50,839 nucleotides of DNA, from assembly GCA_900545325.1 (NCBI GenBank), contig UQZE01000001.1, positions 1 through 50,839 of the forward strand, written 5' to 3'. This DNA comes from an uncultured Eubacteriales bacterium. Its GTDB lineage: Bacteria; Bacillota; Clostridia; Christensenellales; Borkfalkiaceae. This document shows, piece by piece, positions 54-32,772 of this stretch (its first letter is position 1; each line of letters opens with the position of its first letter). Under the pieces are notes generated by a model. It did not search any database, had not been told where the DNA came from, and worked only from the letters and a program-made list of their open reading frames with translations. The position numbers were made by a program, and so were the translations under genes.

Positions 54-611
54 TCAGATGGCGTCCTTCTGCGGCGCCGTTTCCGTGCGGTAGTAGTCGA
101 TATAATCGGACACCGAATGCGCGATGGTCTCCGCCATGCGGTAGATCAGGCTCAGCCGCGTCAGGTTGAAGAGCTGGTAATTTTTAAAGGACTTCACGGC
201 CACTACGCCGATAATGCTCACGTCGCCGATCTCGCTTAAATTCTTGTTCACGCCGAGGCCGGGTTTCAGTCCCTTGTCCACGGCCTTGATCAGCCCCACG
301 TCGTCCGTTTCGCCCACGGCCGCGTCTATGGCGATGACCATGGACTTCGGGTGCAGCTGCTTTAAATACCGCCGCACGTATTCCACTTCTTTGGACGTAA
401 TCGGCTGGTTGAGCGTACCGTAGATATACGCGCCCGCGTTCCTCTGTTTCAGAAAAGTCCCGACCAGCGGGCCGAGGGAATCGCCCAGCACCAGATCGCT
501 GCCCACGCACACGATGATCGGCGCGGCGTTGTCCGCGTTGAATTCCTTGAGCGCCTGGAAAATCCCGTTGTTTGCATACTTGTTGAATACGTTGAAAGTA
601 TAAGTTTTCAT
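54..611 (-). CDS. yyaC: sporulation protein YyaC (GPR-like, DUF1256 family)
   Basis: 185-aa ORF. Motifs IIVCVGSDLVLGDSLGPLVG, VIAIDAAVG and GLKPGLGVNK match the YyaC family. A purine-rich SD lies upstream. Confidence 0.85.
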   Translation of the reverse strand: MKTYTFNVFNKYANNGIFQALKEFNADNAAPIIVCVGSDLVLGDSLGPLVGTFLKQRNAGAYIYGTLNQPITSKEVEYVRRYLKQLHPKSMVIAIDAAVGETDDVGLIKAVDKGLKPGLGVNKNLSEIGDVSIIGVVAVKSFKNYQLFNLTRLSLIYRMAETIAHSVSDYIDYYRTETAPQKDAI

Positions 612-675
612 GCCCTGCCGCCTTCTTTTTCTATAATGATACCCGCGGCGCGGGAAATTATACCTCTTTTTAGAG

Positions 676-704
676 TTGTATTTATTTTATTTTTGTGGTA
701 ATAT
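676..704 (+). promoter_or_regulatory. sigmaA-type promoter with extended -10; candidate leaderless start for cvpA-like gene
   Basis: TTGTAT (676-681), 17-nt spacer ending TGg, TAATAT (699-704). ATG 713 lies 8 nt downstream with no SD between. Confidence 0.45.
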
Positions 705-712
705 TGATTTAT

Positions 713-1483
713 ATGGCAAACTTACTTCTTTCCTCCAACGCCGCAGTGGACATCGTTCTCATCGCGATCATGGCGCTGTTTGCTTTCTACGGCTTTATAA
801 AGGGGTTTACGTCGCTCCTCGTGCGTTTTCTCGCGGGAATTCTCACGCTGGTGCTTTCGTTCGTCCTGTGCCGCAATGCGGCCGATTTTTTAAATGACGT
901 CTTCGGCATGACGGACAAGCTCGGCGCCTCCGTCGCGGGCGCCCTGCCCGGGGTGTTCGGCGAAGAACTGATGAGCATGCCCGTTTCCATGGTGAACGAG
1001 GGCAATTTAGGTTCGCTCTCCGTTCCCAAGTTCATCGTCAACCTGCTTTTGAAAATCGCTTCGGACGGCTCCGTCCCCGCGGATACCGCCGTCGTAGACG
1101 TGCTCGCGCCCGCGTTCGCATACTATATCGCTGTCGTCATCGGGTTCGTGCTTTGCTATATCCTGTTCAGAATATTGTTTTTCCTTATCGGCAGGCTCTT
1201 CAAAGGGGTAAACAAAATCCCCCTGCTCGGCGGCGTCAACCGCCTGCTCGGTTTTCTGCTGGGGGCAATCCAGGGCTTTCTCGTCGTTTACGTCGCGCTT
1301 TCGGTCGTCGACCTGCTGCCTTTCGGGTTTCTGGAAGGTTTCAAAAACCTGCTGGCGGCGTCCAAGGTCGCAAGCGGCATCATGAGCATCAACGTGTTCG
1401 GCATACTCTTCGGCACGGTCAATCCGCTCGATTACATCACGGGCAAAACCGCGTTTCTAAACTCGCGTTATGGATACATTTAA
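713..1483 (+). CDS. CvpA-family integral membrane protein
   Basis: ORF 695..1483, with the start moved to ATG 713 (MANLLLSSNAAVDIVLIAIMALFAFYGFIKGF). Multi-TM protein with a CvpA-like N-terminus. Confidence 0.65.
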   Translation: MANLLLSSNAAVDIVLIAIMALFAFYGFIKGFTSLLVRFLAGILTLVLSFVLCRNAADFLNDVFGMTDKLGASVAGALPGVFGEELMSMPVSMVNEGNLGSLSVPKFIVNLLLKIASDGSVPADTAVVDVLAPAFAYYIAVVIGFVLCYILFRILFFLIGRLFKGVNKIPLLGGVNRLLGFLLGAIQGFLVVYVALSVVDLLPFGFLEGFKNLLAASKVASGIMSINVFGILFGTVNPLDYITGKTAFLNSRYGYI

Positions 1484-2348
1484 AATAGCCTTGCTGCAGC
1501 TCCTGCCCGAAAGCACGCTGCGGGGCAATATCGAAAAGGGGATTTCTTACTGCAGGGCCGCAAAAAAGGCGGGGGCGGATCTCGCCCTCTTTCCCGAAAT
1601 GTGGAGCAACGGTTACCGCATAGGTTCGCCCGCCGATCTTGCGGAGGAGGCCGTCGCCTCCGACGGCGAATTTTTGCGGCGGTTCGCCGGCTGCGCAAAG
1701 GAACTCGGCATGGCGATATGCGTTACCTATCTGGAAAAGTTTTCGCCCGCGCCGCGCAACTCGCTCGCGCTCTTCGACGGACGGGGCGAAAAAGTGCTTG
1801 ACTACTCCAAAGTGCATACCTGCGATTTCGGGGAAGAACGCCTGCTCGCGGCGGGGGACGGGTTCCGCACCGCCGAACTCGAAACCGGCGAAGGCCCGGT
1901 CAAGATCGGCGCCATGATCTGTTACGACAGGGAGTTTCCCGAAAGTGCGCGCGTCCTCATGCTGCAGGGTGCGGAAATCATTCTCGTCCCCAACGCCTGT
2001 CCCATGGAAATTAACCGCCTTTCCCAGCTGCGGGCCAGGGCGTTTGAAAACATGCTGGGCATAGCCACGTGCAACTATCCCGCGCCGCACCCCGACTGTA
2101 ACGGACATTCCAGCGCGTTCGACGGCGTGGCATATATGCCCGAAGTTCCCGTTTCCCGGGATACGTGTATTCTCGAAGCGGGCGAACAGGAGGGCGTTTA
2201 CATAGCGGAATTCGATCTCGCCGCCCTGCGCGCTTACCGCAGGGCGGAGGTGCACGGCAACGCGTACCGCCGTCCGGAAAAATACGCGGCGCTCCTCGAT
2301 AAGACCGTCCGCGAACCGTTCATCCGCAACGACCGTAAAGAAAGATAA
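1470..2348 (+). CDS. carbon-nitrogen hydrolase (nitrilase superfamily) protein
   Basis: 292-aa ORF. LALFPEMW, ICYDREFPE and ILVPNAC match the Glu/Lys/Cys signature segments of CN hydrolases. Overlaps the cvpA-like stop by 14 nt. Confidence 0.8.
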   Translation: MDTFKIALLQLLPESTLRGNIEKGISYCRAAKKAGADLALFPEMWSNGYRIGSPADLAEEAVASDGEFLRRFAGCAKELGMAICVTYLEKFSPAPRNSLALFDGRGEKVLDYSKVHTCDFGEERLLAAGDGFRTAELETGEGPVKIGAMICYDREFPESARVLMLQGAEIILVPNACPMEINRLSQLRARAFENMLGIATCNYPAPHPDCNGHSSAFDGVAYMPEVPVSRDTCILEAGEQEGVYIAEFDLAALRAYRRAEVHGNAYRRPEKYAALLDKTVREPFIRNDRKER

Positions 2349-2378
2349 AGAGGAAAGCGTCTTCCGCTTTCCTCTTTT
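2348..2378. terminator. bidirectional intrinsic terminator between convergent genes
   Basis: AAGAGGAAAGCG / CGCTTTCCTCTT 12-bp stem with a 5-nt loop, flanked by A- and T-runs. Confidence 0.75.
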
Positions 2379-2381
2379 ATT

Positions 2382-2888
2382 TTAAACTAAATATTTTATC
2401 ATGCCCGCTATCGCGTATCCTTCCTTCCGCACGCGCTCTCCCGTAAAGGCAAAGCCGTTCTTTTTCCAAAACGCCGCGGCTTTTTCGCTCCCCTCTATCA
2501 CGCCGAGCTTTACTTTTAAATAGCCGCTCTCTTTGAAAAAGCGGAAAATTTCCCGCGCGAGCCGACTGCCTTCGCCCGCTCCCTGCCTCGTCTTATCGAG
2601 CATAAAAAGACCTATGTAGGCCGTTTCTCCGTCGGGATACCCCGCTATCAGGTCGGCCTCCGCGATCAGCCGCCCGCCGTCGAAAAAACCGATATAATAT
2701 TTGTCCTCATATCCCTTGCCCGGCGGCAGGGCGGCAAGGTTTTCCCGAAAGCTCTCCGCCGACGGGGACGAAAAGGTGAGCGCGAAAAAATCGGCGTTGC
2801 CGCTTTCGAGCGCGTATACCGCGGCGGCGTCTTTTTCGCTGAGCCGCCTTGCAAAAAAGCGCGGGGATATGTTTCCGATTTCCGTCAT
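2382..2888 (-). CDS. GNAT family N-acetyltransferase
   Basis: 168-aa ORF. RQGAGEGSRLAREI and AAAFWKKNGF match the acetyl-CoA binding motif A/B pattern. Its ATG overlaps the response-regulator stop (TGATG). Confidence 0.75.
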   Translation of the reverse strand: MTEIGNISPRFFARRLSEKDAAAVYALESGNADFFALTFSSPSAESFRENLAALPPGKGYEDKYYIGFFDGGRLIAEADLIAGYPDGETAYIGLFMLDKTRQGAGEGSRLAREIFRFFKESGYLKVKLGVIEGSEKAAAFWKKNGFAFTGERVRKEGYAIAGMIKYLV

Positions 2889-3535
2889 CAGTCGTTTTTC
2901 ATGGCGTTTTCAATGATCTCTTTCGCCTGCACGCGGTTGGCGGCGCCCAGCTTGATATAGATGCCGCTGATATAATTGCGCACCGTACCCTCGCTGATCT
3001 CCAGCGCCGTGGAGATCTGGCGGTTGTTGAAGTTTTCCGAAACCATCATCGCGATCTCCGTTTCCCTGTCGGAAAGCTGAAAGGCGCGTTTGAGCCGTAT
3101 TTCCTTGCCCGTAGTAACCATTTTCGCGGCCGCCGTGATCTTTTTTGCGATGTTGGTCGGCAGAATGAGCTCGCCGTTGTAAGCGTTCACCACGGCGTCT
3201 ATGAGGGAGGAGGCGTTGATATCCTTTAAGAGATAACCGCTCGCGCCGTAATTGATGGCGTCCAAAATATAGTCGCTGTCGTCGAAAGTCGTTAAAATCA
3301 CCACCTTGATGTCGGGATAGTTCTTTTTGATCTCGCGGGTGGCGATCACGCCGTTCATATTTGGCATGCGTATGTCCAAAAGCACCACGTCGGGTTTTTC
3401 TTCGGCAATCTTTTTCAAACAGTCTTCTCCGTCGGAGGCGAGCGCTATGACCTTTATTTTTTCCGAAGTTTCCAAAACGGTTCTGATGCCTTCGGCGAGT
3501 ATTTTCTGATCGTCCGCGATGATGACTTTAATCAT
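2888..3535 (-). CDS. response regulator, NarL/LuxR (DegU-like) family
   Basis: Receiver motifs IIADDQ, VVLLDIRMPNMNG and LLKD, plus a C-terminal LuxR HTH (LSDRETEIAMMV..ISEGTVRNYISGIY). Confidence 0.9.
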   Translation of the reverse strand: MIKVIIADDQKILAEGIRTVLETSEKIKVIALASDGEDCLKKIAEEKPDVVLLDIRMPNMNGVIATREIKKNYPDIKVVILTTFDDSDYILDAINYGASGYLLKDINASSLIDAVVNAYNGELILPTNIAKKITAAAKMVTTGKEIRLKRAFQLSDRETEIAMMVSENFNNRQISTALEISEGTVRNYISGIYIKLGAANRVQAKEIIENAMKND

Positions 3536-4739
3536 TGTTTTCTCCTTTATTGAGGTGCGCGGGCAGGATAAGCTTTATTTCCATGCCCTCGTCTTCTTCG
3601 GTATAAAACTCCGCGCTGCCGCCGAGCTTTTCGGCGCCCGCCCGCATGGAACCGAGCCCGTATCCCTCTTTGAAATCGTCCTTGCCCATGCCGTTGTCCG
3701 AAAGAAGAAAGCGTATTTCGCCGTCGGAAATCTTCAGTTCGAACAAAAACGCCGTCGCGCGGCCGTGGCGTATGCCGTTATTCAGCCCCTCTTTGAGCGA
3801 AGTATAGATGAAAAAGCCGATTTCCTCGTCTACGTCTATCTCCTCCGGATACTTCGCGCGGATCACGATATCCGTGCCCTCCATCGTTTCCGCAATGGCT
3901 TTATCGAGAGAAGCCACCAGGTTGAACGGCACGTATTCGCCCGAAAGCACGCGCACGGACTTTCTCAGTTCCTCGAGCGCGGTAACCGCCTGCATGTTGG
4001 CGGAAACGATTCTGCTCTTGGCCTCCTCGGGATCGGTGTCGAATTTGAGTTTCGCGGCCTCGGTCTGCACGATAATGGTCGTGATAGAATGGCCCGTGGT
4101 ATCGTGGATCTGCTTTGCTATGCGGTTGCGCTCCTCGAGCTGCGCCATTTCCTTCAGATTTTCATTGGCTTCCTGCAGTTTTTTTTCGCGTTCCGCCACT
4201 TCCTGCAGATTTTTTACCACTTCCTTGTTCTTTTTGATGATCACGTTCAGCATGTTCGCGATGGTAAACACCAGCGTGAAAACGATAAACTCGTTGATAA
4301 CGGTGGCGAGCAGTACGGAAAAGTCGAAAGCCGCGGGGGCGAAGATATAATCGCGCACGCCTATGCTGACGGCGTACGCCACAAAGGAAAGCCCGCCGAA
4401 CACGCAGTTCCCCTTAAGCGTGTTGTTCATGTAAAAATCCACGAGGATGAGGGAATAGAGCGTGGATAAAAACGGCATGGAAAACATCAGGGAATACACC
4501 AGCAGTATGACGTATTCCACCGCATAAAACACCGCTTTGACCGCGAGATTTTTTATAAAGAAAGAGTTTGCCTCGAATACGATAAACAGTCCGAGCGACA
4601 AAGAAAGGGCCACATACCACCGTTTTCCGCCCTGAACGGACAAAATGACAAGCAGAACGAAAAGGCAGATGCTGCAGCCGACCTTGATGATGTCGGCCAC
4701 GTCGTATTTCTTCAGCTTATAGAAATTTTTTATTTCCAT
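3528..4739 (-). CDS. multi-TM sensor histidine kinase (HisKA_3 type)
   Basis: ORF 3528..4868 trimmed to ATG 4739 (MEIKNFYKL). About 5-6 TM helices, an H-box (RIAKQIHDTTGHS) and an HATPase_c domain (GLNNGIRHG, DNGMG, GYGLGSM). The ATG overlaps the gltX TGA by 1 nt. Confidence 0.85.
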   Translation of the reverse strand: MEIKNFYKLKKYDVADIIKVGCSICLFVLLVILSVQGGKRWYVALSLSLGLFIVFEANSFFIKNLAVKAVFYAVEYVILLVYSLMFSMPFLSTLYSLILVDFYMNNTLKGNCVFGGLSFVAYAVSIGVRDYIFAPAAFDFSVLLATVINEFIVFTLVFTIANMLNVIIKKNKEVVKNLQEVAEREKKLQEANENLKEMAQLEERNRIAKQIHDTTGHSITTIIVQTEAAKLKFDTDPEEAKSRIVSANMQAVTALEELRKSVRVLSGEYVPFNLVASLDKAIAETMEGTDIVIRAKYPEEIDVDEEIGFFIYTSLKEGLNNGIRHGRATAFLFELKISDGEIRFLLSDNGMGKDDFKEGYGLGSMRAGAEKLGGSAEFYTEEDEGMEIKLILPAHLNKGENND

Positions 4740-6181
4740 CACATTCCGAGAAGCGCCATGGAATAATCGAGGCGTCTGAGCGTTTCCTCCTTGCCGAGCA
4801 GTTCCGCAAGCTCCATCACGCCGCCGGGGGTGGATTCCCTGCCGCTGATGGCGATTCTCACGCACCACAGCACCTGGCCGTTTTTCATGCCGAGGCGGGA
4901 TACGAGCGCCATCAATTCGTCGTGCAGGGTGTTGAAATCGAAAGCGCCGAGCGAGGCGAGCAGCTCTCTCGCCGCGGGCAGAACTTTTTTGGCGATCTCG
5001 GCGTCCGTCTTCATCTTTTTATGAGTGAAAAGAGCGACGTCGTATTCGCCGAATTCCTCCAAAAAGTCCACCTTTTCGGGGATTTCGGCAAAGGTTTCTA
5101 TCCTCGTTTTCAAAAGCGCCGCTATTTTTTTCAGATCGTATTTGCCGTATACCTTGCTCTTTTTAAAAAAGGGCAGGCCGCGCTCCACGAACTCTTCGTC
5201 GCCCATTTCCTTGATATATTCGCCCGAAAGCCAGCGCATTTTCGTTTCGTCGAAGATGGAGGGGGACTTGGATATGCCGTCCAGCGAAAAATGTTCCGTA
5301 AGCTCTTTCAGGCTCATTTTCTCTATATTTTCCTTGGGGCTCCAGCCGAGCAGGGCGATATAGTTGACGATGGCTTCTTTCACGAACCCTTTCTCCACGA
5401 AATCGGCGTAGCTCGCGTCCCCGTTGCGCTTGGAAAGCTTGTGCCGCTCGTCCTTCATGATGGGCGGCAGGTGAATATAAACGGGGCGCTCCCAGCCGAA
5501 CGCGTCGTACATCAGGTTGTATTTCGGCGTGGAGGAAAGGTATTCGCTGCCGCGTATGACGTGCGTGATGCCCATCAGGTGATCGTCCACCACGTTGGCG
5601 AAATTATACGTCGGCATGCCGTCGCTCTTGATCAGAATGCCGTCCTCCATATCCTTGAAATCGACGGATATATCGCCGTAAACGAGGTCATGGTAGCTCC
5701 CCGTTCCCTCTTCGGGAATGTTTTGGCGGATAACGTAGGGCGCGCCGCTTTTCAGCTTTTGTTCTATTTCCTCTTTCGAAAGGCGCAGGCAATGCTTGTC
5801 GTAACGGCAGTTGCCGTTTCCGTCGCGCAGCGACTCTATGCGTTCCTTATCGCAGAAACAATAATACGCCCCGCCGAGTTCCACCAGTTTTTTCGCGTAT
5901 TCGGTGTAGATGTCCTTTCTTTCGCTCTGCACGTAGGGGCCGTAACCGCCGCCGACGTCGGGACCTTCGTCGTAGACGATTCCGGAATCTTTCAGCGTGT
6001 CGTAAATGATTTCCACGCTGCCCTCCACATAGCGCTGCAGATCGGTGTCCTCTATCCGCAAAATAAAGTCCCCGCCGCGCTGTTTCGCATATAAAAACCC
6101 GTAAAGCGCCGTTCTCAGTCCGCCGATATGCAAATATCCCGTGGGACTGGGCGCGAATCTCGTTCTAACCTTGTCTGCCAT
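4739..6181 (-). CDS. gltX: glutamate--tRNA ligase
   Basis: RFAPSPTGYLHIGGLRTAL (HIGH motif), RIEDTDLQR and KLSKRNG (KMSKS motif). AAGGAG SD upstream. Confidence 0.95.
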   Translation of the reverse strand: MADKVRTRFAPSPTGYLHIGGLRTALYGFLYAKQRGGDFILRIEDTDLQRYVEGSVEIIYDTLKDSGIVYDEGPDVGGGYGPYVQSERKDIYTEYAKKLVELGGAYYCFCDKERIESLRDGNGNCRYDKHCLRLSKEEIEQKLKSGAPYVIRQNIPEEGTGSYHDLVYGDISVDFKDMEDGILIKSDGMPTYNFANVVDDHLMGITHVIRGSEYLSSTPKYNLMYDAFGWERPVYIHLPPIMKDERHKLSKRNGDASYADFVEKGFVKEAIVNYIALLGWSPKENIEKMSLKELTEHFSLDGISKSPSIFDETKMRWLSGEYIKEMGDEEFVERGLPFFKKSKVYGKYDLKKIAALLKTRIETFAEIPEKVDFLEEFGEYDVALFTHKKMKTDAEIAKKVLPAARELLASLGAFDFNTLHDELMALVSRLGMKNGQVLWCVRIAISGRESTPGGVMELAELLGKEETLRRLDYSMALLGM

Positions 6182-6192
6182 GTCTTCTCCTT

Positions 6193-6885
6193 TTACCGCT
6201 GTTTTATTTCTTCCAGCCTGTCGCTGTAATAATAACTGTACGTTCTGTTTCCCGCAACGATCACGTGGTCGGAAAGCTCCACGCCGTGCAGCGCCAGAAG
6301 TTTATATAATTTCTCCGTCGTTTCGTCGTCCTTTTTCGAGGGCGAGGGATTGCCGCTCAGATGATTGTGGATCGCCACCGCGCGTTTCGGGCGGGCGACG
6401 ATTATGCTCTGCGCCAGTTCTTTCGGATCGATAAAAACTTCGTCCTTCAGTCCGCAGGCGAAGGACGCTTTCGAAAGGATAAAGCTCTTTTCGTCGAGAA
6501 GATAGAGGGAAAACACCTCTTCTTCCAGCGCGCCGAACTCTTCGGCGAGCCTTTCTTTCATCTTTATGTAGATAAATTTTTCCTTCCCGCGGGTTTTTTC
6601 CCCGGCCAGCCGTTCCGCGAGCGCGGCGTACAGCCTGATGGCGAGGCAGGTCTTTTCGCCCACCCCGTCCACGCTTTTCAGCACCTCCGCGTCGGCGGAA
6701 AGCACGTTTTTCAGGGAACCGAACGTCCTTAAAAGCTTATGCGCCAGCGGATTGGTGTCCTTTCTCGGCAGAGCGGAATAGAGCATGATCTCCAGCACCT
6801 CGTGTTCGCTCAGGGAATCGGGATATTTCAGAAACCGTTCCGTCATGCGCCGTCTGTGCCCGCTGTGAATGTTTTTATCTTCCAT
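6193..6885 (-). CDS. radC: RadC-family JAB domain protein
   Basis: ORF 6193..7017 trimmed to MEDKNIHSGHRRRMTERF. Contains an HhH region (GVGEKTCLAIRL) and a JAB motif (AVAIHNHLSGNPSPSKKD). Confidence 0.8.
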   Translation of the reverse strand: MEDKNIHSGHRRRMTERFLKYPDSLSEHEVLEIMLYSALPRKDTNPLAHKLLRTFGSLKNVLSADAEVLKSVDGVGEKTCLAIRLYAALAERLAGEKTRGKEKFIYIKMKERLAEEFGALEEEVFSLYLLDEKSFILSKASFACGLKDEVFIDPKELAQSIIVARPKRAVAIHNHLSGNPSPSKKDDETTEKLYKLLALHGVELSDHVIVAGNRTYSYYYSDRLEEIKQR

Positions 6886-6893
6886 ACGTATCA

Positions 6894-6921
6894 ATTTTAC
6901 CATATTTTCATAAAAAATCAA
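6894..6921 (-). promoter_or_regulatory. sigmaA-type promoter with extended -10; candidate leaderless start for radC
   Basis: Read on the minus strand: TTGATT, 16-nt spacer ending TGg, TAAAAT, then 8 nt to ATG 6885. No SD. Confidence 0.45.
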
Positions 6922-7037
6922 TCGTTTCTTCCGCAAAATCCCTTTTCGGCATAAAATTTTGAATTTTCCCCGCGTTTCTTTTGCATTTTTTCCCGAAATG
7001 GAATACAATAATACCATAAACTCATGGAAGGCGGAAC

Positions 7038-8300
7038 ATGTTAGACAAACAGCTTTATATTGACGATCTGGCTAAACTCATATCCAAAAAGAGCGTGCAG
7101 GGCGCCCCGCGGGAAAACGCGCCGTTCGGCGCGGAAGTCAAGGCCGCGCTCGATCTGTTTTTAGAGATCGGCGCGCGCATGGGCTTCACCGCGGTCAATC
7201 ACGATAATCATATAGGCGAACTGACCTGCGGCGAGGGCGAGGAATTCGGCATCATAGGCCATCTCGACGTCGTTCCCGCAGGGGACGGCTGGCACACCGA
7301 CCCGTATACGCTCACGCTGAAAGACGGCAAGTATTACGGCCGCGGCACCACGGACGACAAGGGGCCTACGCTCCTTTGCCTTTACGCGCTCAAAGAACTC
7401 AAGGACGGCGGCGCGAAATTCAATAAAAAAGTGCGTTTTTTCGTCGGCTGCAACGAAGAATCGGGCTGGGCGGACGTAGAACATTATAAGAAAAACGGCG
7501 GCACGTTTCCGAAATGGGGTTTCTCTCCCGACGGCGATTTTCCCGTGGTCTATGCGGAAAAGGGGCCGAACAGAGTGGTATTTCATCTGCCGTACGCGGG
7601 AAAATTCAAAAACCTGTCGGGCGGCACGGTGGTCAACGCCGTATGCGCCTATGCCTGCGCGAACGGGCCGACCGATCCCGCTTTGCTGCAAAAACACGGG
7701 TTAAAGGCGACGGGGGATAAAATAGAGAGTTTCGGCAAGAGCGCGCACGGCTCCATGCCCGAACTCGGCAAAAACGCCATACTGCCCCTGCTCCGCTATA
7801 TGGCTGACTGCGGCGAAAACGTGGGCGCGCTTATCGATATTTTCGAAGACAAGGCGGGCATTACCGCGCAGGGCAACGAAACGGGCATGGCGACAATCAG
7901 CCCCGACCTCGTTTCGCAGACCGACGGCGAGATCGTGCTCACCGCCGACTTCCGCGTGCCCGCGCGCATGAAAGCGGAGGATTTTTTTCCTATTTTCGAC
8001 AAGATGAACGTAAAATACGAATTTTTCAAGAACCGCGATCCGCTATACGTGCCGAAAGACAGCGAAACGGTGCAGAAACTGATGAAAGCGTATAACGAAG
8101 CCACGGGACAGAACCTGCGGCCCATCAGTCAGCGCGGGGCTACGTTCGCCTCCGTTTTCGAATGCGGTACTGCGTTCGGCCCGGAATTTCCGGGAGAAGA
8201 GAGCAGCATACATCAGCCCGACGAATTTATCAAGGACAGCGATATCGATCTGATGTACGACATCTATTTCAAGGGAATAAAAGCGGTAACCACGGAATAA
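7038..8300 (+). CDS. M20-family dipeptidase (PepV/Sapep-like)
   Basis: IIGHLDVVPAGDGW, GRGTTDDKGP and CNEESGW are typical M20 metal-ligand segments. Confidence 0.8.
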   Translation: MLDKQLYIDDLAKLISKKSVQGAPRENAPFGAEVKAALDLFLEIGARMGFTAVNHDNHIGELTCGEGEEFGIIGHLDVVPAGDGWHTDPYTLTLKDGKYYGRGTTDDKGPTLLCLYALKELKDGGAKFNKKVRFFVGCNEESGWADVEHYKKNGGTFPKWGFSPDGDFPVVYAEKGPNRVVFHLPYAGKFKNLSGGTVVNAVCAYACANGPTDPALLQKHGLKATGDKIESFGKSAHGSMPELGKNAILPLLRYMADCGENVGALIDIFEDKAGITAQGNETGMATISPDLVSQTDGEIVLTADFRVPARMKAEDFFPIFDKMNVKYEFFKNRDPLYVPKDSETVQKLMKAYNEATGQNLRPISQRGATFASVFECGTAFGPEFPGEESSIHQPDEFIKDSDIDLMYDIYFKGIKAVTTE

Positions 8301-13855: not shown

Positions 13856-13893
13856 ATTATTCCGTCCTCTTTTTAGTAGTTTTGCGTTTTTTT

Positions 13894-13922
13894 ATTATAG
13901 TAAAGTTTTCTTTTTTTGTCAA
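13894..13922 (-). promoter_or_regulatory. consensus sigmaA promoter of rpmH operon
   Basis: On the minus strand: TTGACA (13922-13917), 17-nt spacer, TATAAT (13899-13894). It starts 5 nt after the dnaN stop. Confidence 0.75.
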
Positions 13923-13926
13923 TCTT

Positions 13927-15030
13927 TTAAGCGTTAATTCTCACGGGCAGCACCAAATACAGGTAATTATCCCCGCTGACGGGCTTGATTATGCAGGGCG
14001 CGATGGGGGAATTTAAGTAAATATTGATGAATTCGTCCTCCGCGATGCGCAGAAATTCCGTAATGTATTTAGAGTTGAAGGCGATCGTTATGTCCTTGCC
14101 CTCCATATTGACGTTCACCGGCTCGTTCACGTTGCCTATCTCGCTCTTGGAGATGACGTACATGAACTTTTCCTTGATGTCGAACTTGACGATGGAGATC
14201 CTGTCGCTCCGCGCGAGCACCGACGCTCTTTCCACGCTGGCGGCGAGCGTCTTTACGTTCACCCTTACGTTGGTTACGAACTCCGAAGGAATGATCTGCT
14301 TGTAATTGATAAATTCGCCCTCCAGCAGGCGGGAGATGAGCGTGGTGCCGTTCGTCTCCACCATGAGGGTGTTTTTATTGAGCGTTACTTTTAAATCCTC
14401 TTCGTCCTTATCGAGCAGCCTCACGATTTCCATCAGCGTGCGGGAAGGGATTATGGCCTTCATTTCCGCGGAAAAACCGCTCACGTCCGCGCGGGCGAGC
14501 GACAGCCTGAAGCCGTCCAGCGCGACCGCCGTAGCCCTGGCGTTGGCGATCTCGAAGAGTACGCCCTTTAATATGGGGCGGCTGTCGTCCTGCGAACAGG
14601 CGAAAACCGTCATGTTGGTCAGGCGTTTGAAATCGCTTTGTTTCATCACGAAGAAATTGTCGTTTATCTTTTTATCCGCGCGCGGGAACTCTTCGGCGGA
14701 AAAGCACTGCATCTCGCTTTCCGAATCCGAGTATTTTATTTTAAGCTGGTTTTCATCCGCCAGAGAAAGCTCCACCTGTTCGTTTTCCAGCTTTTTGACG
14801 AATTCCGCGAAGAACTTGCCCGTTACAACGGTTTCGCCCTCCATCAGGACTTCCGCCCTCACGTTTTTTTCGATGGTCAGTTCCGTATCGGTGGCAACGA
14901 GCGTAAGCGTATCGCCTTTCGCCTTGAGATATATTCCCTCCAGAACGGGATTCGTCTTTTTTACGCCGAGCGCTTTGCTTACTTTAAGCACCGCGTCCGA
15001 AAGGTCCAAACCGTCGCAAATGATCTTCAT
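13927..15030 (-). CDS. dnaN: DNA polymerase III beta sliding clamp
   Basis: 367 aa. N-terminus MKIICDGLDLSDAVLKVSKAL...NPVLEGIYLKAKGDTLTLVATDTE and typical length. GGAG SD. Confidence 0.95.
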   Translation of the reverse strand: MKIICDGLDLSDAVLKVSKALGVKKTNPVLEGIYLKAKGDTLTLVATDTELTIEKNVRAEVLMEGETVVTGKFFAEFVKKLENEQVELSLADENQLKIKYSDSESEMQCFSAEEFPRADKKINDNFFVMKQSDFKRLTNMTVFACSQDDSRPILKGVLFEIANARATAVALDGFRLSLARADVSGFSAEMKAIIPSRTLMEIVRLLDKDEEDLKVTLNKNTLMVETNGTTLISRLLEGEFINYKQIIPSEFVTNVRVNVKTLAASVERASVLARSDRISIVKFDIKEKFMYVISKSEIGNVNEPVNVNMEGKDITIAFNSKYITEFLRIAEDEFINIYLNSPIAPCIIKPVSGDNYLYLVLPVRINA

Positions 15031-15039
15031 AAATTTCTC

Positions 15040-15186
15040 CGTAAACTGTCGTTTCGATATTCTATTATATTATATATGATAGATTGAAAAAAATCAATAA
15101 AATGCGGCTCTTTTTTGTCCGTTTTTTAAGGAAAGGATATTATTTCTTTTTTTAAATTTAAATCAGTAGTCATTATTATAAGGCGG
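15040..15186. other. AT-rich tract (candidate DNA unwinding region) ending in a GGCGG block
   Basis: Long A/T runs (TATTATATTATATATGATAGATTGAAAAAAATCAATAAAAT; TTTTTTTAAATTTAAATCAGTAGTCATTATTATAA) lie between the dnaN start and the DnaA-box array. Confidence 0.4.
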
Positions 15187-15194
15187 TGTATATT

Positions 15195-15382
15195 TGTGGA
15201 AAGCGCCGTTTCCGCTATGTATAGACTGACGTTTTAAAGTGGATAAACTGTGATTTGTTTTGTGGACAAGCTGTGAAAAGCTTGTGGAAGAACGGCGCTT
15301 TCGGTTCTGAAAGGCAGAGGCGGGGCGGGCGCATTTTTTCCCGCGTCAGAAAACGGGTAAGTTTTCCGCACGCTGTGGAAAA
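15195..15382 (+). promoter_or_regulatory. array of five same-orientation DnaA-box-like 9-mers (candidate oriC)
   Basis: TGTGGAAAG 15195, AGTGGATAA 15238, TGTGGACAA 15261, TGTGGAAGA 15283, TGTGGAAAA 15374. Each has 1-2 mismatches to TGTGGATAA. Confidence 0.6.
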
Positions 15383-15406
15383 GAAATGTGAATATCTTTG
15401 TTTTCG

Positions 15407-15435
15407 TTGTGTATTTTCCGAAAATATGTTAATAT
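15407..15435 (+). promoter_or_regulatory. promoter with extended -10; candidate leaderless start for rsmG
   Basis: TTGTGT, 17-nt spacer ending TGt, TAATAT (15430-15435), then 7 nt to ATG 15443. No SD. Confidence 0.45.
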
Positions 15436-15442
15436 CTTTACT

Positions 15443-16120
15443 ATGAAAGAGCTTTTCGGAAAATACGGCATATCGCTCACAGACGCCCAGGCGGAAAAAT
15501 TCGCGAAGTTTTACGCGTTTTTGACCTCGGAAAACGAAAAATACAATTTAACCGCCATCACGACGGAGGAAGAGGTATACGAAAAACATTTTATAGACAG
15601 TCTTCTTTGTGTGGATAAGTTGTGCGGAAAAACGCTGCTCGACGTGGGCAGCGGCGGCGGCATGCCCGCCGTGCCGCTGGCGGTCGTGAAAGAGGATATT
15701 TCCTTTACGCTGCTCGAAGCGACGGGAAAGAAGTGTAATTTTTTGAAAAGCGCGGCCGCGCTTTTGGATCTTAAAAACGTAAAGGTGATAAACGGGCGGG
15801 CGGAAGAGCTGGCGAAAGGGGAGATGCGGGAAAGTTTCGATATCGTTACGGCGCGGGGCGTGGCCCGCATGAACACGCTTGCGGAATACTGCCTGCCGTT
15901 CGTAAAAAAAGGAGGCGTATTCGTGGCGTTCAAGGCGGACGCGGAAGAAGAGGTGAAAGAGGCGGCGTCCGCGCTGAAAATACTCGGCGGCGAAGTGGAG
16001 TATACGGTGAAAAAACAGCTCGGGGAGGCGAAACGAGAAATGATATTCGTCCGCAAAACGGGCGCAACGCCGCCGAAATATCCGCGCGGCAACGGTAAGG
16101 AGAGAAAATGCCCGCTGTAA
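15443..16120 (+). CDS. rsmG: 16S rRNA (guanine527-N7)-methyltransferase RsmG/GidB
   Basis: ORF 15398..16120 trimmed to MKELFGKYGISLTDAQAEKF..YNLTAI. SAM motif LLDVGSGGGMPAVPLA. Confidence 0.9.
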   Translation: MKELFGKYGISLTDAQAEKFAKFYAFLTSENEKYNLTAITTEEEVYEKHFIDSLLCVDKLCGKTLLDVGSGGGMPAVPLAVVKEDISFTLLEATGKKCNFLKSAAALLDLKNVKVINGRAEELAKGEMRESFDIVTARGVARMNTLAEYCLPFVKKGGVFVAFKADAEEEVKEAASALKILGGEVEYTVKKQLGEAKREMIFVRKTGATPPKYPRGNGKERKCPL

Positions 16121-16563
16121 AGGCCGTCGCGGTAACGGGGCACAGGGATATGTCCCGCGGCATAGACGATAAAAAACTGCAGGATATCCTCGTTTCCCTG
16201 ATAGAGAGGGGATACAGGACTTTTTATCTCGGTCTGGCGCTCGGTTTCGACACCTATTGTTTTCGCACGCTGTTTTTATTGAAGAAAAAGTATAAACTGA
16301 AACTGATCGGCTGTGCGCCTTATGAAAATCAAAGCGAAAAATGGAGCGCGCGCGATAAAGAGATATACCGTTATATGTGCTCGCTTTGCGACGAGCGCGT
16401 TGCCGTGAGCGAAAATTATTATCCGGGCTGTATGATGAAGAGAAACGCCTATATGGTGGACAGATCGGAGGTCGTGCTCGCCTATCTCAACAAGAGCGCG
16501 GGCGGCACCTATAATACGGTGAAATACGCCGTATCGCAGGGAAAGAAAATCATATATATATGA
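16108..16563 (+). CDS. SLOG-fold DUF1273/YpsA-like protein
   Basis: VAVTGHRDM.., YRTFYLGLALGFDT and GGTYNTVKYA resemble the YpsA/DUF1273 family. AAGGAG SD. Overlaps the rsmG stop. Confidence 0.65.
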   Translation: MPAVKAVAVTGHRDMSRGIDDKKLQDILVSLIERGYRTFYLGLALGFDTYCFRTLFLLKKKYKLKLIGCAPYENQSEKWSARDKEIYRYMCSLCDERVAVSENYYPGCMMKRNAYMVDRSEVVLAYLNKSAGGTYNTVKYAVSQGKKIIYI

Positions 16564-18202: not shown

Positions 18203-18880
18203 TTATAAAAGTTTGGAAATATATTTATCCAGGCTCTTGGCGAACGGGGAAGTAACGTCGATAAAGTACCTTAATGCGTTTTTTTCGGCGTAGCCGGAGG
18301 ATACCCATTCGGCGTCGATATATTCCGTTTTATATTTCACTTCCAGCCCCGCGACGGTCTTTTCGTCTTCGAGGCCGTAATATTTTTTGAAGCCGTCATA
18401 GGTTTCTTTTCCGCTGAATTCCACGTAAATTTCCAGATCTTCCATGCCGTAGCCGTTTATCACTTTGGCGGCTACTTCCACATAGCGCAGCCGGCCGCTT
18501 TCTTTGTCGAAATAAGCGGTGTAGGAGGCCGTGGCGTTGGGGGAATATTCGAAATACTCAAAATCGCGGAACACGTTTTCGTCGAGTTCCCGCAGTTGGG
18601 AATACGTCATATACTCTCCGCGCACGCTGTCCGCGCCGTAGTAAACGGGTTTTTTGGAAATGCCGCCGAAAACGCCGCTCGCCGCGAGAACGGCCACGGC
18701 CAAAATAAGAACGCACGCAAAAGAAGAAACGAGCCGCAAGGTAAATTTGGCCCTTTTCTTTCTGCGCGTTCTCTCCGCGAACGCCGCTCTGGCGGGCAGA
18801 AGAACCTGGCGGCCGACGTTTACGCCGTCAAAGTAATTCTGCATCAAGTTTTCGAGCTGCATGTCTTTCTTCATCATCAT
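18203..18880 (-). CDS. putative single-pass anti-sigma factor
   Basis: The ATG overlaps the sigma stop (TAATG). One TM helix (LVSSFACVLILAVAVLAASGVF). The call rests on position directly after an ECF sigma gene; no diagnostic motif was recognised. Confidence 0.5.
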   Translation of the reverse strand: MMMKKDMQLENLMQNYFDGVNVGRQVLLPARAAFAERTRRKKRAKFTLRLVSSFACVLILAVAVLAASGVFGGISKKPVYYGADSVRGEYMTYSQLRELDENVFRDFEYFEYSPNATASYTAYFDKESGRLRYVEVAAKVINGYGMEDLEIYVEFSGKETYDGFKKYYGLEDEKTVAGLEVKYKTEYIDAEWVSSGYAEKNALRYFIDVTSPFAKSLDKYISKLL

Positions 18881-19440
18881 TACAACGTTTCTATACGCCC
18901 TTTTGTCCCCGAAAGCAGAAAAATTTTCAGCTTTTTTTCCGCCTCGTCCAGATCGCGCTGCACCTGCGACTTGCTCGAACCCGTTTTGCCCGCGATTTCG
19001 CGGATGGTCAGATCGAGATAATATCTGTAATATATGAGCTCTTTTTCCCTTATCGGAAGTTGCTTTATCGCCTCTTCCAGCGTGATCGCGGTAACTTTTT
19101 TATCCTCGTCGTACGCGTCGTAGGAAGTGATGGAAAAGCAATCGTCGATATTGATTTCGGCGTGCCTGCCTTTCTTTCTCAAAAGGTCGAGGGCGGCGTT
19201 CTGCGTTATTTTCATAACGAACCCGTATCCGTTGCCGCCTTTGAATTTATCTGCGTTTTCCACTACCTTGACGAAGGCGTTCTGCACCGCGTCTTCGGCG
19301 TCCGTGCGGTTTTTTAAAATACCGAGGGCGAGCGCGAACATTCTCGACGAACACAAACGGTAAATTTCGTCGAGAGCGCTTTCTTTCCCCATTTTTAGAT
19401 ATAAAAGATAGGTCGCTATCAAAGCGGAAAGTTCGCTCAT
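18880..19440 (-). CDS. ECF-type sigma-70 family RNA polymerase sigma factor
   Basis: Region 2 (DAEDAVQNAFVKV) and region 4 HTH (YYLDLTIREIAGKTGSSKSQVQRDL). Confidence 0.85.
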   Translation of the reverse strand: MSELSALIATYLLYLKMGKESALDEIYRLCSSRMFALALGILKNRTDAEDAVQNAFVKVVENADKFKGGNGYGFVMKITQNAALDLLRKKGRHAEINIDDCFSITSYDAYDEDKKVTAITLEEAIKQLPIREKELIYYRYYLDLTIREIAGKTGSSKSQVQRDLDEAEKKLKIFLLSGTKGRIETL

Positions 19441-19501: not shown

Positions 19502-19521
19502 TTATCCACAATTTATCCACA
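19502..19521 (+). promoter_or_regulatory. two tandem perfect DnaA boxes
   Basis: TTATCCACA at 19502-19510 and at 19513-19521, same orientation, 2 nt apart. Confidence 0.8.
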
Positions 19522-19571: not shown

Positions 19572-19958
19572 TCAAACGTTTTCCTTTTTGAAAGCCGCGA
19601 AAAAGTAAAGCCCGCTCATAATAAGCGGCACGATCAGCGTAGACCAAAACTGCGGAGAAATGCCTTTGAAATTGTCCGTAATCAAAAGAACGGCCGTTAT
19701 GCCGCCGATAATAACGAAAACGATAAGCGAAAATACCGCGCCCGACAGCAGAGGTATTTTGCTGCGATGCTTATTGTGAATAAGATACACGGAAAGAAAA
19801 AACAGCGGAATCTGCAATACGGCTAAAAAAATCCAAATGCCTAAATCGCTGCCGTTCATATAATAAGTCCTTCCGTACAAAAAAAAGACATAACCGAACG
19901 TGGCCAAAAACAAAACGAACGCCAAAACGGCATTGACGATGCAGATTAATCTTTTCAT
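19572..19958 (-). CDS. small 4-TM membrane protein, function unknown
   Basis: 128-aa hydrophobic ORF with GAGGGGG SD. TTGACA-18-TATAAT promoter upstream and a terminator hairpin at 19535-19562. Confidence 0.5.
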   Translation of the reverse strand: MKRLICIVNAVLAFVLFLATFGYVFFLYGRTYYMNGSDLGIWIFLAVLQIPLFFLSVYLIHNKHRSKIPLLSGAVFSLIVFVIIGGITAVLLITDNFKGISPQFWSTLIVPLIMSGLYFFAAFKKENV

Positions 19959-20023
19959 AAATTTTCCCCCTCATACAAATCTTTTTCTTCATTATATAAC
20001 GTATTGAAAGGGAATGTCAAGCA

Positions 20024-20054
20024 TAAAAAAATCCCCCGCGGATTACCGCGGGGG
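20024..20054 (-). terminator. intrinsic terminator of nifJ
   Basis: CCCCCGCGG / CCGCGGGGG stem with a 4-nt loop, followed on the minus strand by a T-run. Confidence 0.8.
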
Positions 20055-20069
20055 CGCTTTCGCTTTTTT

Positions 20070-23682
<3,613 letters not shown>

Positions 23683-31248: not shown

Positions 31249-32013
31249 TTGGAGAAGAAATCCATCGTTATCATTCAGGATAACGAAAAGAGGAACATGG
31301 AACTGCAAAAAATCATTGCCGCAACTTCCGATCTGGAAGTCGTCGGCATCGCGACAGACGGAATCGGCGGATATAAGCTGATCGAAGAAAAGAAACCCGA
31401 TTTCGTCGTTTCCGAACTGCTGCTCGCCGGCTTCGACGGGTTCTGTATTCTCGACAAACTGAGATCTTCGGGGCTGGAAACAAAGGTCATACTCGTGAGC
31501 GCGTTCGTCCGCGAAGACATCGTCGCAAAAGCTCTTTCCAAAGGCGCGGCGTTTTTTATCGCGAAACCTTACGCTTACGAAGTGCTTATCGAGCGCATTC
31601 GCGACCTCGACGAAACCAGGGCGGCGCAGAAGGCGCGCGTTTACGGCGAGGGCGTCAGGCGCAACACGCTCGACGAAAAGATAAGCAATATTTTTATAAA
31701 CGTAGGTATACCTCCTCACATCAAAGGGTATGCTTATCTGCGGGAAGGCGTTAAGATGGCCGTGGACAACCCCGACATCATCAACAACATCACCAAAAAA
31801 CTCTATCCCATGATCGGCGAAAGATATTCCACCAGCGCCAGCAAAGTGGAAAGGGCGATCCGCCACGCGATAGAAGTCGCCTGGAACAGAGGGCGCATCG
31901 AAAGCATAAACAATATTTTGGGCGTGAGGGCTTATATCGGCGCCGAAAAACCTACCAACGGGGAATTTATCGCCCTCGTCGCGGATAAAATGCTTTTGGA
32001 AAAAGTGCAGTAA
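31249..32013 (+). CDS. spo0A: sporulation master regulator Spo0A (atypical receiver: Glu at the acceptor site)
   Basis: TTG start 9 nt after AGGAGG. Effector-domain signatures GIPPHIKGYAYLREGV, SASKVERAIRHAIEVAWNRG and KPTNGEFIALVADKM. Confidence 0.85.
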   Translation: MEKKSIVIIQDNEKRNMELQKIIAATSDLEVVGIATDGIGGYKLIEEKKPDFVVSELLLAGFDGFCILDKLRSSGLETKVILVSAFVREDIVAKALSKGAAFFIAKPYAYEVLIERIRDLDETRAAQKARVYGEGVRRNTLDEKISNIFINVGIPPHIKGYAYLREGVKMAVDNPDIINNITKKLYPMIGERYSTSASKVERAIRHAIEVAWNRGRIESINNILGVRAYIGAEKPTNGEFIALVADKMLLEKVQ

Positions 32014-32046
32014 AATAAAAAATTTAAAAAATTATATCAAAAATAG

Positions 32047-32075
32047 TTTACAAATCGGACTTTTATTGCTAAAAT
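32047..32075 (+). promoter_or_regulatory. sigmaA promoter ahead of zinc-ribbon/acidic protein gene
   Basis: TTTACA, 17-nt spacer, TAAAAT. Implies a leader of about 185 nt. Confidence 0.55.
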
Positions 32076-32265
32076 CTTATGCGATACTGAAAAGATGAGC
32101 CGAAAGCCGAAAAAATCGCTGAAAAGTAACTTTTTTTCGCGGCGGCACAATACAATAAGTATACGGACGTATTCCCGATGAAAACGGCGGCTCGATTTTT
32201 GGGGGAGTTAAACCGAGGGAAAGGTTCCGGCAAACAAGGAAAAAACGTAGTAAGAGGATTTGGAT

Positions 32266-32772
32266 ATGGCGGGAGATTATATTAAATGTCCGAGATGCGA
32301 ACTCAATTACATTCATAAGAACCAGGGGTATTGCGATGTATGCAAGGCGGAGCTGAAATTAGGTCCGCAGCTGGTTTTCGCCGTAGAAGAAGATGATGAG
32401 GAACCCATGGAACTTTGCCCCATCTGCAAGCAGAATTACATCAAGGAAGGGGAAGAGATGTGCGCCAAGTGCCGTGAGGAAATGGACTTCAAAAAAGACG
32501 AGATAGACCTCGATAAGGACGAGGAGTGGAAAAATTATCTCGAAGAAGACGCCGACGACTGCGAAGACGACGAGGAGATGCTCTCGCTTTCACGTCTGGC
32601 GGAAGAAGAGGCTGACGAACTCTTCGACGACGAAGAAGACGAAGAAGCGGACGACGTCGGTCCCGACGAACCCGACGACTTTGAAATCCCCGAGATCGAC
32701 GAAAGAGATTTCGAGGAAGAGGACGAAGACGAGGAAGAAGAGGACGAGGACGACGAGTTCGACGATAAATGA
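32266..32772 (+). CDS. double zinc-ribbon protein with polyacidic C-terminal tail
   Basis: ATG 32266 lies 7 nt after AAGAGGA. CPRC..CDVC and CPIC..CAKC pairs, followed by about 95 residues that are mostly Asp/Glu. Confidence 0.6.
   Translation: MAGDYIKCPRCELNYIHKNQGYCDVCKAELKLGPQLVFAVEEDDEEPMELCPICKQNYIKEGEEMCAKCREEMDFKKDEIDLDKDEEWKNYLEEDADDCEDDEEMLSLSRLAEEEADELFDDEEDEEADDVGPDEPDDFEIPEIDERDFEEEDEDEEEEDEDDEFDDK

Follow-up and report, generated by a model that had tools for sequence, protein, structure and literature searches.

A candidate rearranged replication origin linked to dnaN, with dnaA not adjacent, in a lineage of gut Clostridia

The gene context rnpA-rpmH-dnaA-dnaN is conserved in Firmicutes, and in Clostridioides difficile melting in vitro required both oriC1 and oriC2 (PMC7561715). 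Cyanobacterial origins lie beside dnaN with dnaA elsewhere, as confirmed experimentally in Synechococcus elongatus PCC 7942 and Anabaena PCC 7120; as the cause, the authors proposed that dnaA left an ancestral dnaA-dnaN origin (PMC4009838). Here we analyzed a stretch of 50,839 nucleotides (the window) from an uncultured Eubacteriales bacterium (contig UQZE01000001.1), in which the gap upstream of dnaN, at 15031-15442, is bounded by a divergent rsmG and carries an array of DnaA boxes. The content and conservation of this gap suggest that it is probably the origin of chromosome replication or, at the least, the half of that origin which DnaA unwinds. The origin of this lineage would then have been rearranged from the classic Firmicutes neighborhood to one with rsmG on one side and, pointing the other way, dnaN-rpmH-rnpA-yidD-yidC-jag.

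An unwinding module has been described (PMC8287927) as a DnaA box with at most 2 mismatches, a spacer of at most 16 bp (peak 10-13 bp), and at least three DnaA-trios of the form 3'-NAN-5' (consensus 3'-GAT-5'); a GC cluster and a second, weaker box are frequent within the spacer. We scored DnaA boxes as 9-mers by their mismatches to TTATCCACA. Read toward dnaN, the gap presents the box CTTTCCACA at 15195-15203, with three 1-mismatch boxes upstream of it; a 12-bp spacer with ATATACACC inside and a GC end; four consecutive trios, which begin 12 nt past the proximal box; and, directly beyond the trios, an easily melted tract. The 40-mer at 15141-15180 has a duplex stability of -38.9 kcal/mol (mean of the window -56.6 +/- 5.5) and ranks among the window's five least stable. 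Two of these five lie inside the gap, one of them directly beside the trios. A first-pass annotation had proposed the order boxes, AT-rich tract, dnaN; that order holds and can be sharpened to a box-spacer-trio module of the published kind. The GGCGG block that it marked at 15182-15186 is likewise present. The AT-rich tract, which it drew from 15040 to 15180, exists but is not uniform, its dnaN-proximal part (15069-15097) being the dnaN promoter.

The same 12-bp register was found in seven other species (L004, L005, L007, L009, L013, L014, and L016). In L004, L005, and L007 the trio register reads CTA ATA ATA AT., and L009 has a clear second box, TTATCCACC, within the same 12 nt, giving it two clear tandem boxes. 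More distant loci carry runs of CTA: the trios of L075 read CTA CTA CTA TTA TTA after an 11-nt spacer (8 or 14 nt if the frame is shifted by 3 nt), and those of L019 read CTA CTA CAA CTA CTA CTA. Judged by their sequence, the CTA repeats of L075 and L019 are textbook trio arrays.

Conservation across the gap is concentrated in these elements. We aligned the gap of the window species with those of five sister species (73-80% nucleotide identity; alignment A1). Mean column identity in the gap was only 63%, with sharply conserved islands that follow one another, in the dnaN direction, as the rsmG promoter region, several DnaA boxes, a core, the AT-rich motif TTTAAATTTAAAAAAAG, a variable stretch, the dnaN promoter, and the ribosome-binding site. 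The core, ..TTTCCACA-AAT.TACACCGC-CTAATAATAAT.., is nearly invariant. Within it, the TCCA center of the proximal box is invariant in all six species and the remainder of the box nearly so, and the spacer part ...TACACCGCC is almost invariant. TTTAAATTTAAAAAAAG in the AT-rich tract is also conserved across species. Nearer to dnaN, the blocks ATTGATTTTTT...TATATAAT and CGGAGA, which belong to the dnaN promoter and ribosome-binding region (GGAG at ~15037-15040), are invariant, and the best-conserved block at the opposite end coincides with 15407-15435, which is probably the rsmG promoter. This pattern indicates that the DnaA boxes of the gap are under purifying selection.

The first-pass annotation had listed five same-orientation 9-mers (at 15195, 15238, 15261, 15283, and 15374), and each proved to be a box with 1-2 mismatches. 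It had missed three more: those at 15387 and 15362, and one within rsmG, at 15610-15618, that matches TTATCCACA perfectly. Counting boxes with up to 2 mismatches, the gap thus holds 7 within 210 bp, 6 sharing a strand, and the same-orientation array upstream of the proximal box spans 15238-15395. Among 300 dinucleotide-preserving shuffles of the window, the maximum was 6 boxes per 210 bp and 4 on one strand. Shuffles of the gap alone gave 1.35 +/- 1.1 boxes, and 7 were reached in 0 of 2000. Since neither set reproduced the observed cluster, it exceeds chance. Boxes occupy matching alignment positions in the sister species, and of the 93 boxes in 16 related gaps, 73 are oriented in the dnaN sense.

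DnaA boxes are also enriched in the window as a whole (20 with at most 1 mismatch, versus 5.9 expected). The perfect box at 15610-15618 covers the codons L-C-V-D-K of rsmG and is perfect in L004, L006, and L009 as well, although RsmG is only 58-72% identical to the proteins of those species; it could be an extension of the origin array or the mere result of amino-acid conservation. A perfect tandem pair lies at 19502-19521 (TGTGGATAA-NN-TGTGGATAA; on the plus strand TTATCCACA-NN-TTATCCACA), between an ECF-type sigma gene (sigma-70 family, 18880-19440, minus strand) and an ORF at 19572-19958, and thus upstream of the sigma gene. The sister species L004 has the pair upstream of the orthologous sigma gene, in flanking DNA that cannot be aligned, while L007 and L008 lack it. 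From its position, the pair probably marks a promoter under DnaA control or a site of titration, and its retention in otherwise unalignable DNA argues, as do the window-wide box enrichment and the conserved boxes of the gap, for a working DnaA in this clade.

The locus itself is reproducible. Pfam and NCBIfam models confirmed the genes that the first-pass annotation had placed on the minus strand, in the order dnaN, promoter, rpmH, rnpA, yidD, yidC, jag, and their coordinates (Table 1); the 412-nt non-coding region upstream of dnaN and, where dnaA would usually stand, a divergent rsmG (Pfam GidB, TIGR00138) were also as it had described. DnaN scored 270 bits on TIGR00663 (cutoff 138), and RsmG 164 bits on TIGR00138 (cutoff 99.5). 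Between the stop codon of dnaN and the start of rpmH lie 71 nt (13856-13926), and the two genes are co-oriented, again in keeping with that annotation. Because no intrinsic terminator was detected in a scan of this 71-nt spacer, dnaN does read into the rpmH operon, though rpmH retains a promoter of its own. The TTGACA-17-TATAAT that had been proposed for it matches the consensus in full, and TTGACA plus a -10 hexamer occupy this site in 9 of 9 loci inspected (8 relatives and the own-species contig L001).

It had been suggested that the unusual gene order might come from an assembly join. To us the chance that the 13.8-15.5 kb junction is a chimera appears negligible. Identical neighbors surround dnaN on all 22 contigs with the exact DnaN sequence and on 24 others whose DnaN is a 99.5%-identical variant; these contigs, at least 46, are 99.1-99.8% identical to the window in nucleotides across the junction. 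They derive from Logan, ENA, and NCBI, from different samples, and from SPAdes, MEGAHIT, and scaffolded assemblies. The species is very abundant in ERZ26178010, whose contig NODE_37 has ~1137x coverage, and its DnaN and Spo0A (MFR6055309.1 and MFR6055618.1 in an NCBI MAG) also occur together on one contig of 552,376 bp. The same order recurs in 18 other species, and we found nothing in favor of a join, which these data refute.

We scanned one genome per species and obtained 18 related loci, from metagenome-assembled genomes (MAGs) labeled Clostridia, Bacillota, or Christensenellaceae; the relatives' records name Christensenellaceae or 'Ca. Borkfalkiaceae'. All 16 loci that extend past dnaN have dnaN-rpmH-rnpA-yidD-yidC-jag, and rsmG, in most cases accompanied by ypsA, diverges from dnaN in every locus that shows the upstream side. 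Two further lineages, L075 (DnaN 69% identical) and L076 (61%), have the same block. The arrangement is common to 19 species-level lineages in total, and dnaA adjoins dnaN only in the most distant relatives, L019 and L020, where the two genes diverge (DnaN identity is 45% in L019; the L020 match covers the first 110 residues only). On this comparative evidence, the rearranged locus is a trait of the lineage rather than a feature of one genome or an assembly error. Of the proposal of a rearranged origin with dnaA relocated or lost, the rearrangement is thus supported, and widened to 19 lineages.

As the first-pass annotation had stated, the window contains no DnaA-like ORF. Pfam scans of 40 long ORFs (at least one of which, 20004-23612, is a shadow ORF) revealed no DnaA, and tblastn of six DnaA proteins against the window gave nothing better than E = 0.04 and no DnaA fragment. 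We extended the view 10 kb past each window end through contigs matching the window-end proteins, and neither the window nor these flanks contain dnaA, recF, or mnmG. Measured from the gap, the dnaA-free span therefore extends for at least 25 kb toward jag and at least 45 kb toward rsmG. Nor is dnaA present within 8-10 kb of dnaN in two sister species (L007 and L008) or in two deeper relatives (L075 and L076).

Relatives in which dnaA was located carry it in a module of its own, recF (minus), dnaA (plus), and mnmG (plus), with recF divergent from dnaA and not following dnaN (e.g. L009:16365-20808; around 8600-13400 in L029, L034, L036, L054, and L064). In ten Christensenellaceae-like relatives (L009-L015, L017, L018, and L021) the module lies 1.3-3.9 kb downstream of jag, on the dnaN strand. 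It stands beside DUF1256-cvpA-gltX-radC-M20 for P0273 (P0121 cluster), a gene run equivalent to window positions 54-8300 (GltX 69% identical); beside smc-rnc-plsX for P0294; beside yggS-sepF-spo0A-cysS for P0420 and P0422, from two abundant sister species; and, as seen from dnaN, ~10 kb beyond rsmG for P0444 of 'Ca. Borkfalkiaceae'. The module was present in every other lineage whose DnaA was looked up, and every related lineage with a located dnaA encodes an intact DnaA with both Pfam domains. The recF-dnaA gaps of 8 relatives contain only 0-1 DnaA boxes, and box-based autoregulation of dnaA may be missing in these organisms. Judged by skew, dnaA may be head-on to the fork in three lineages. 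Three relatives' dnaA loci have uniformly negative GC skew without a switch. Taken with the nearly box-free recF-dnaA gaps, this implies that the box array stays with dnaN while dnaA is movable.

Because relatives carry this movable module and the boxes of the gap appear to be under purifying selection, we strongly favor relocation of dnaA in the window species and infer, by analogy, that it would reside in a recF/dnaA-mnmG module. The alternative, that dnaA was lost in the clade and initiation became DnaA-independent, leaving boxes that are relics or serve another protein, is unlikely, indeed very much so. It could draw on the lack of dnaA in the window, in the 10 kb beyond either end, and near dnaN in L007, L008, L075, and L076, and on the fact that no inspected DnaA cluster was tied to the window species, though DnaN and Spo0A each occur on ~271 contigs. 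However, the boxes persist as islands in six species amid a diverged gap, perfect boxes are retained in DNA that is unalignable between two species, and DnaA is intact in every related lineage where dnaA was located. The failure to recover the species' own gene also has a technical explanation, in that the matches listed were filled by variants of other clades. DnaA loss is not known outside a few endosymbionts and some cyanobacteria.

Slimmer still is the chance that this dnaN is a paralogue and that a canonical rpmH/dnaA/dnaN origin exists elsewhere in the genome. The single point for it is that the rest of the genome lies outside our view. Against it, DnaN is full-length and scores at equivalog level, it adjoins the normally single-copy rpmH-rnpA-yidD-yidC-jag, 7 of 7 dnaA contexts in relatives are flanked by recF and mnmG and never by dnaN or rpmH, and dnaA stands beside dnaN, divergently, in the distant L019/L020 only.

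We considered P0420/P0422 as the dnaA of the window species and set the pair aside as belonging to another genus, its Spo0A and neighboring gene being only 52% and 56% identical to those of the window. In favor of the assignment, which made the pair the best candidate, both of its species are abundant, their 80.7% nucleotide identity mirrors the 78% between the window species and its sister, and one sample, ERZ28658560, contains the P0420 DnaA together with the window-species DnaN, on different scaffolds. Tetranucleotide correlation did not distinguish same-genome from sister-genus fragments, and scaffold matching linked DnaA with DnaN for the L009 group only and not for the window species. 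Spo0A and the small gene following it occupy 31249-32772 in the window, L036:188-1739, and L055:1315-2819, the counterparts in the P0420/P0422 organisms lying 8 kb from dnaA. The two Spo0A proteins score 247 and 213 bits on TIGR02875, above its equivalog cutoff of 200, and may be either orthologues in different genera or paralogues within one genome.

Cumulative GC skew in the window reaches its minimum at ~15 kb, with a signal that tracks gene orientation, and the minimum falls at the same gap in L007, L008, L009, and L012 (five loci including the window). Nearly all genes to the right of 24 kb, including those in the 10 kb past the window end, are on the plus strand, which fits a right replichore. 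Local GC skew is consistent with an origin at the gap and is not decisive.

Several observations weigh against an origin at the gap with dnaA elsewhere. The species' own DnaA was not found among the matches listed in the DnaA protein and representative searches, which came only from other clades. The skew evidence spans 50-70 kb, with 20-50 kb seen per locus, and a divergent rsmG/dnaN pair alone would make a local switch. On the jag side parA, parB, and ftsH point toward the gap, unlike the usual co-orientation with replication, which is unusual for origin-proximal partition genes; on the rsmG side a large pyruvate:ferredoxin oxidoreductase (PFOR) gene also points toward the gap and would be head-on to replication. 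The trio pattern asks only for NAN at least three times no more than 16 bp from a box, a loose requirement that AT-rich DNA readily satisfies, so that the weight rests on conservation of the register across species. The first trio here is CTT and not CTA, the complement of the consensus GAT, whereas sister species start with CTA. Finally, a sigma-70-like match, TTTCCA-16-TATAAT (15202 to 15175), overlaps the proximal box and the trios, and part of the core conservation could reflect a DnaA-controlled promoter there.

This last point touches the most serious rival, in which the gap is a box cluster that only regulates dnaN and/or rsmG, or titrates DnaA, while the true origin is elsewhere. We regard this as doubtful, though it deserves to be taken seriously. 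Besides the promoter-like match, the dnaN promoter is only 70-100 bp off; the box pair at 19502-19521 implies that DnaA is probably also a regulator in this organism; the genes around the gap are not cleanly divergent; and the relative L064 has a denser cluster away from dnaN, in an unrelated gap between a MarR-family and an amidase gene. However, a conserved box, a 12-bp spacer, trios, and an AT tract in fixed order facing dnaN are the mark of unwinding modules; the recF-dnaA gaps of 8 relatives are nearly box-free; a local skew minimum sits at the gap in five loci; and there is no better origin candidate within the 70 kb examined. Non-origin DnaA-box clusters of Bacillus subtilis, which act in regulation or titration, are outlined in PMC3245932. 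If that class is taken as boxes lacking an unwinding element, the gap departs from it, since trios and a low-stability tract are present, and the pair at 19502-19521 fits it better than the dnaN-rsmG gap does.

The L064 cluster (L064:16367-16564) belongs to the relative with DnaA P0444. It contains 8 boxes with at most 1 mismatch, 4 of them perfect, in 200 bp, which is denser than any cluster of the window, and its distance to dnaA is ~5 kb and to rsmG ~4.5 kb. In that organism the cluster might titrate DnaA or form a second part of the origin.

If the gap is the origin, as we favor, initiation can be pictured as follows. From the elements described above we infer DnaA binding, unwinding, and the start of replication at the gap, with DnaA supplied by a dnaA elsewhere. 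DnaA from this distant gene would fill the same-orientation boxes at 15195-15395, and the proximal tandem boxes (CTTTCCACA and the degenerate ATATACACC) would position an ATP-DnaA filament on the trios at 15171-15182, on one strand. The filament would open the adjoining AT-rich tract (~15137-15170), where the helicase would be loaded. The dnaN promoter (15069-15097) would lie just past the unwinding region, with dnaN and rsmG transcribed away from it and rpmH using its own strong promoter.

Table 1. Features of the dnaN-rsmG gap and of the genes around it (window coordinates; mismatches are relative to TTATCCACA)
Feature	Position	Strand	Details
Proximal DnaA box CTTTCCACA	15195-15203	minus	2 mismatches; anchor of the candidate unwinding module
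Spacer AATATACACCGC, 12 nt	15183-15194	minus	ends in GC cluster
Degenerate second box ATATACACC, inside spacer	15185-15193	minus	3 mismatches
DnaA-trio-like run	15171-15182	minus	dnaN-sense 5'-CTT ATA ATA ATG-3', i.e. 3'-NAN-5' x4 on the complement
AT-rich tract beside trios, candidate DNA-unwinding element	15137-15170		low duplex stability
Array box TTATCCACT	15238	minus	1 mismatch
Array box TTGTCCACA	15261	minus	1 mismatch
Array box TCTTCCACA	15283	minus	2 mismatches
Array box TTTTCCACA	15374	minus	1 mismatch
Array box ATATTCACA	15387	minus	2 mismatches
Lone opposite-orientation box TTTTCCGCA	15362		2 mismatches
dnaN promoter TTGATT-17-TATAAT	15069-15097	minus	10/12 consensus match
rpmH promoter TTGACA-17-TATAAT	13894-13922	minus	12/12 consensus match; right behind dnaN stop codon
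Probable rsmG promoter TTGTGT-17-TAATAT, TG at -15/-14	15407-15435	plus	read from sequence; below promoter-scan threshold
dnaN (DNA polymerase III beta clamp), 367 aa	15030 to 13927	minus	all three Pfam beta-clamp domains; TIGR00663 equivalog
rpmH (ribosomal protein L34)	13855 to 13721	minus	Pfam Ribosomal_L34, E = 2e-22
rnpA (RNase P protein)	13702 to 13355	minus	Pfam Ribonuclease_P, E = 2e-24
yidD	13383 to 13144	minus	PF01809 on called gene of identical contigs
yidC (membrane insertase), 528 aa	13132 to 11546	minus	Pfam 60KD_IMP, two separate stretches
jag (khpB), end gene of the dnaN-rpmH-...-jag block	11490 to 10681	minus	Pfam Jag_N, KH, R3H
rsmG (gidB), divergent from dnaN	15443-16120	plus	Pfam GidB, E = 4e-50; TIGR00138
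ypsA-like SLOG gene, partner of rsmG	16108-16563	plus	Pfam YpsA

Some properties of the surrounding genes should be recorded. The window encodes Spo0A, SipL, and YpeB, a gene content that identifies the host as spore-forming Clostridia. Some gene calls give rnpA a shorter start (95 aa). In YidC, TIGR03592 matches residues 38-139 and other NCBIfam YidC models match ~373-505, so the protein would have an insertion of ~230 aa in the middle of the insertase. The position of jag is kept in all relatives, and the pairing of ypsA with rsmG is retained in most. No Rfam RNA family was matched in 9-21 kb. The plus-strand ORF at 20004-23612 (1202 aa, no Pfam match) shadows the real gene, the minus-strand PFOR of 1173 aa. 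To the left of the window the order is ...band7-nfeD-DZR-parB-parA-ftsH, with parB, parA, and ftsH at L022:15406-19293, 5-9 kb left of the window start and ~20 kb from the gap; in L076 this trio is on the rsmG side, likewise pointing toward the gap. To the right are a sugar ABC transporter and other genes. The sugar-transporter operon there is intact in one strain (L025), whereas in another (L026:14698-17787) it is split by a serine recombinase and a tyrosine integrase, which from the sequence looks like a strain-specific mobile-element insertion.

In this abundant group of human- and animal-gut Clostridia, the rnpA-rpmH-dnaA-dnaN context conserved in Firmicutes (PMC7561715) is broken. The box-trio-AT module remains tied to dnaN, itself fused ahead of the rpmH operon, while dnaA moves. 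Origin-finding software and the MAG convention of starting at dnaA will misplace the origin in such genomes, and the present locus should be of use for origin annotation in these gut MAGs. The group also offers a natural test of whether a Firmicute can manage with one dnaN-linked module, and whether it can do without dnaA autoregulation and without origin-proximal gene dosage. In the very improbable event that dnaA has been lost, free-living spore-forming gut Clostridia would start replication without the canonical initiator, or with another factor that recognizes the same boxes in its place, at an origin that carries boxes and is tied to dnaN. Our literature search turned up no report of this arrangement for Christensenellaceae-like bacteria, which is weak evidence of novelty, since DoriC-type databases may already list predicted origins for these genomes.

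Among known origins, the dnaA-dnaN part of B. subtilis oriC (incC; boxes 6/7, GC cluster, DnaA-trios, AT-rich element) has the same order and polarity as the gap, whose 12-bp spacer falls in the published 10-13 bp peak (PMC8287927). In contrast to B. subtilis, the gene directly upstream of dnaN here is a divergent rsmG and not dnaA, and the trios are mostly ATA (3'-TAT-5') instead of 3'-GAT-5'. Nor does rpmH diverge from dnaA with a second box cluster between them: rpmH lies 71 nt downstream of dnaN, and in relatives the gene divergent from dnaA is recF. With rpmH in that position and no second cluster, the origin here would be a single block and not bipartite. Similarly, oriC2 of C. difficile, in its dnaA-dnaN gap, resembles the dnaN-rsmG gap in having its unwinding region directly upstream of dnaN and TTATCCACA-type boxes, whereas here the locus lacks dnaA, rpmH is co-oriented behind dnaN, and there is no oriC1 equivalent.

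In layout only, the locus is of the cyanobacterial type, with a box cluster beside dnaN and dnaA not adjacent. As in cyanobacteria, the cluster is tied to dnaN and uncoupled from dnaA, and many of its boxes are of the TTTTCCACA type; the proposed cause, departure of dnaA from an ancestral dnaA-dnaN origin, is also shared. Unlike them, these bacteria belong to another phylum, and the fusion dnaN-rpmH-rnpA-yidC-jag and the rsmG neighbor are specific to this lineage. Given the different phylum, the arrangement would have arisen independently, as a parallel case of uncoupling between an origin and its initiator gene. The oriC of E. coli lies between mioC and gidA(mnmG)-gidB(rsmG), with dnaA ~40 kb away; dnaN remains with dnaA there, and rpmH is divergent from dnaA. 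As in E. coli, the proposed origin is beside a gene of the rsmG/gidB family and the initiator gene would be tens of kilobases off, but here it is dnaN and rpmH that stay at the origin, while dnaA travels with recF and mnmG.

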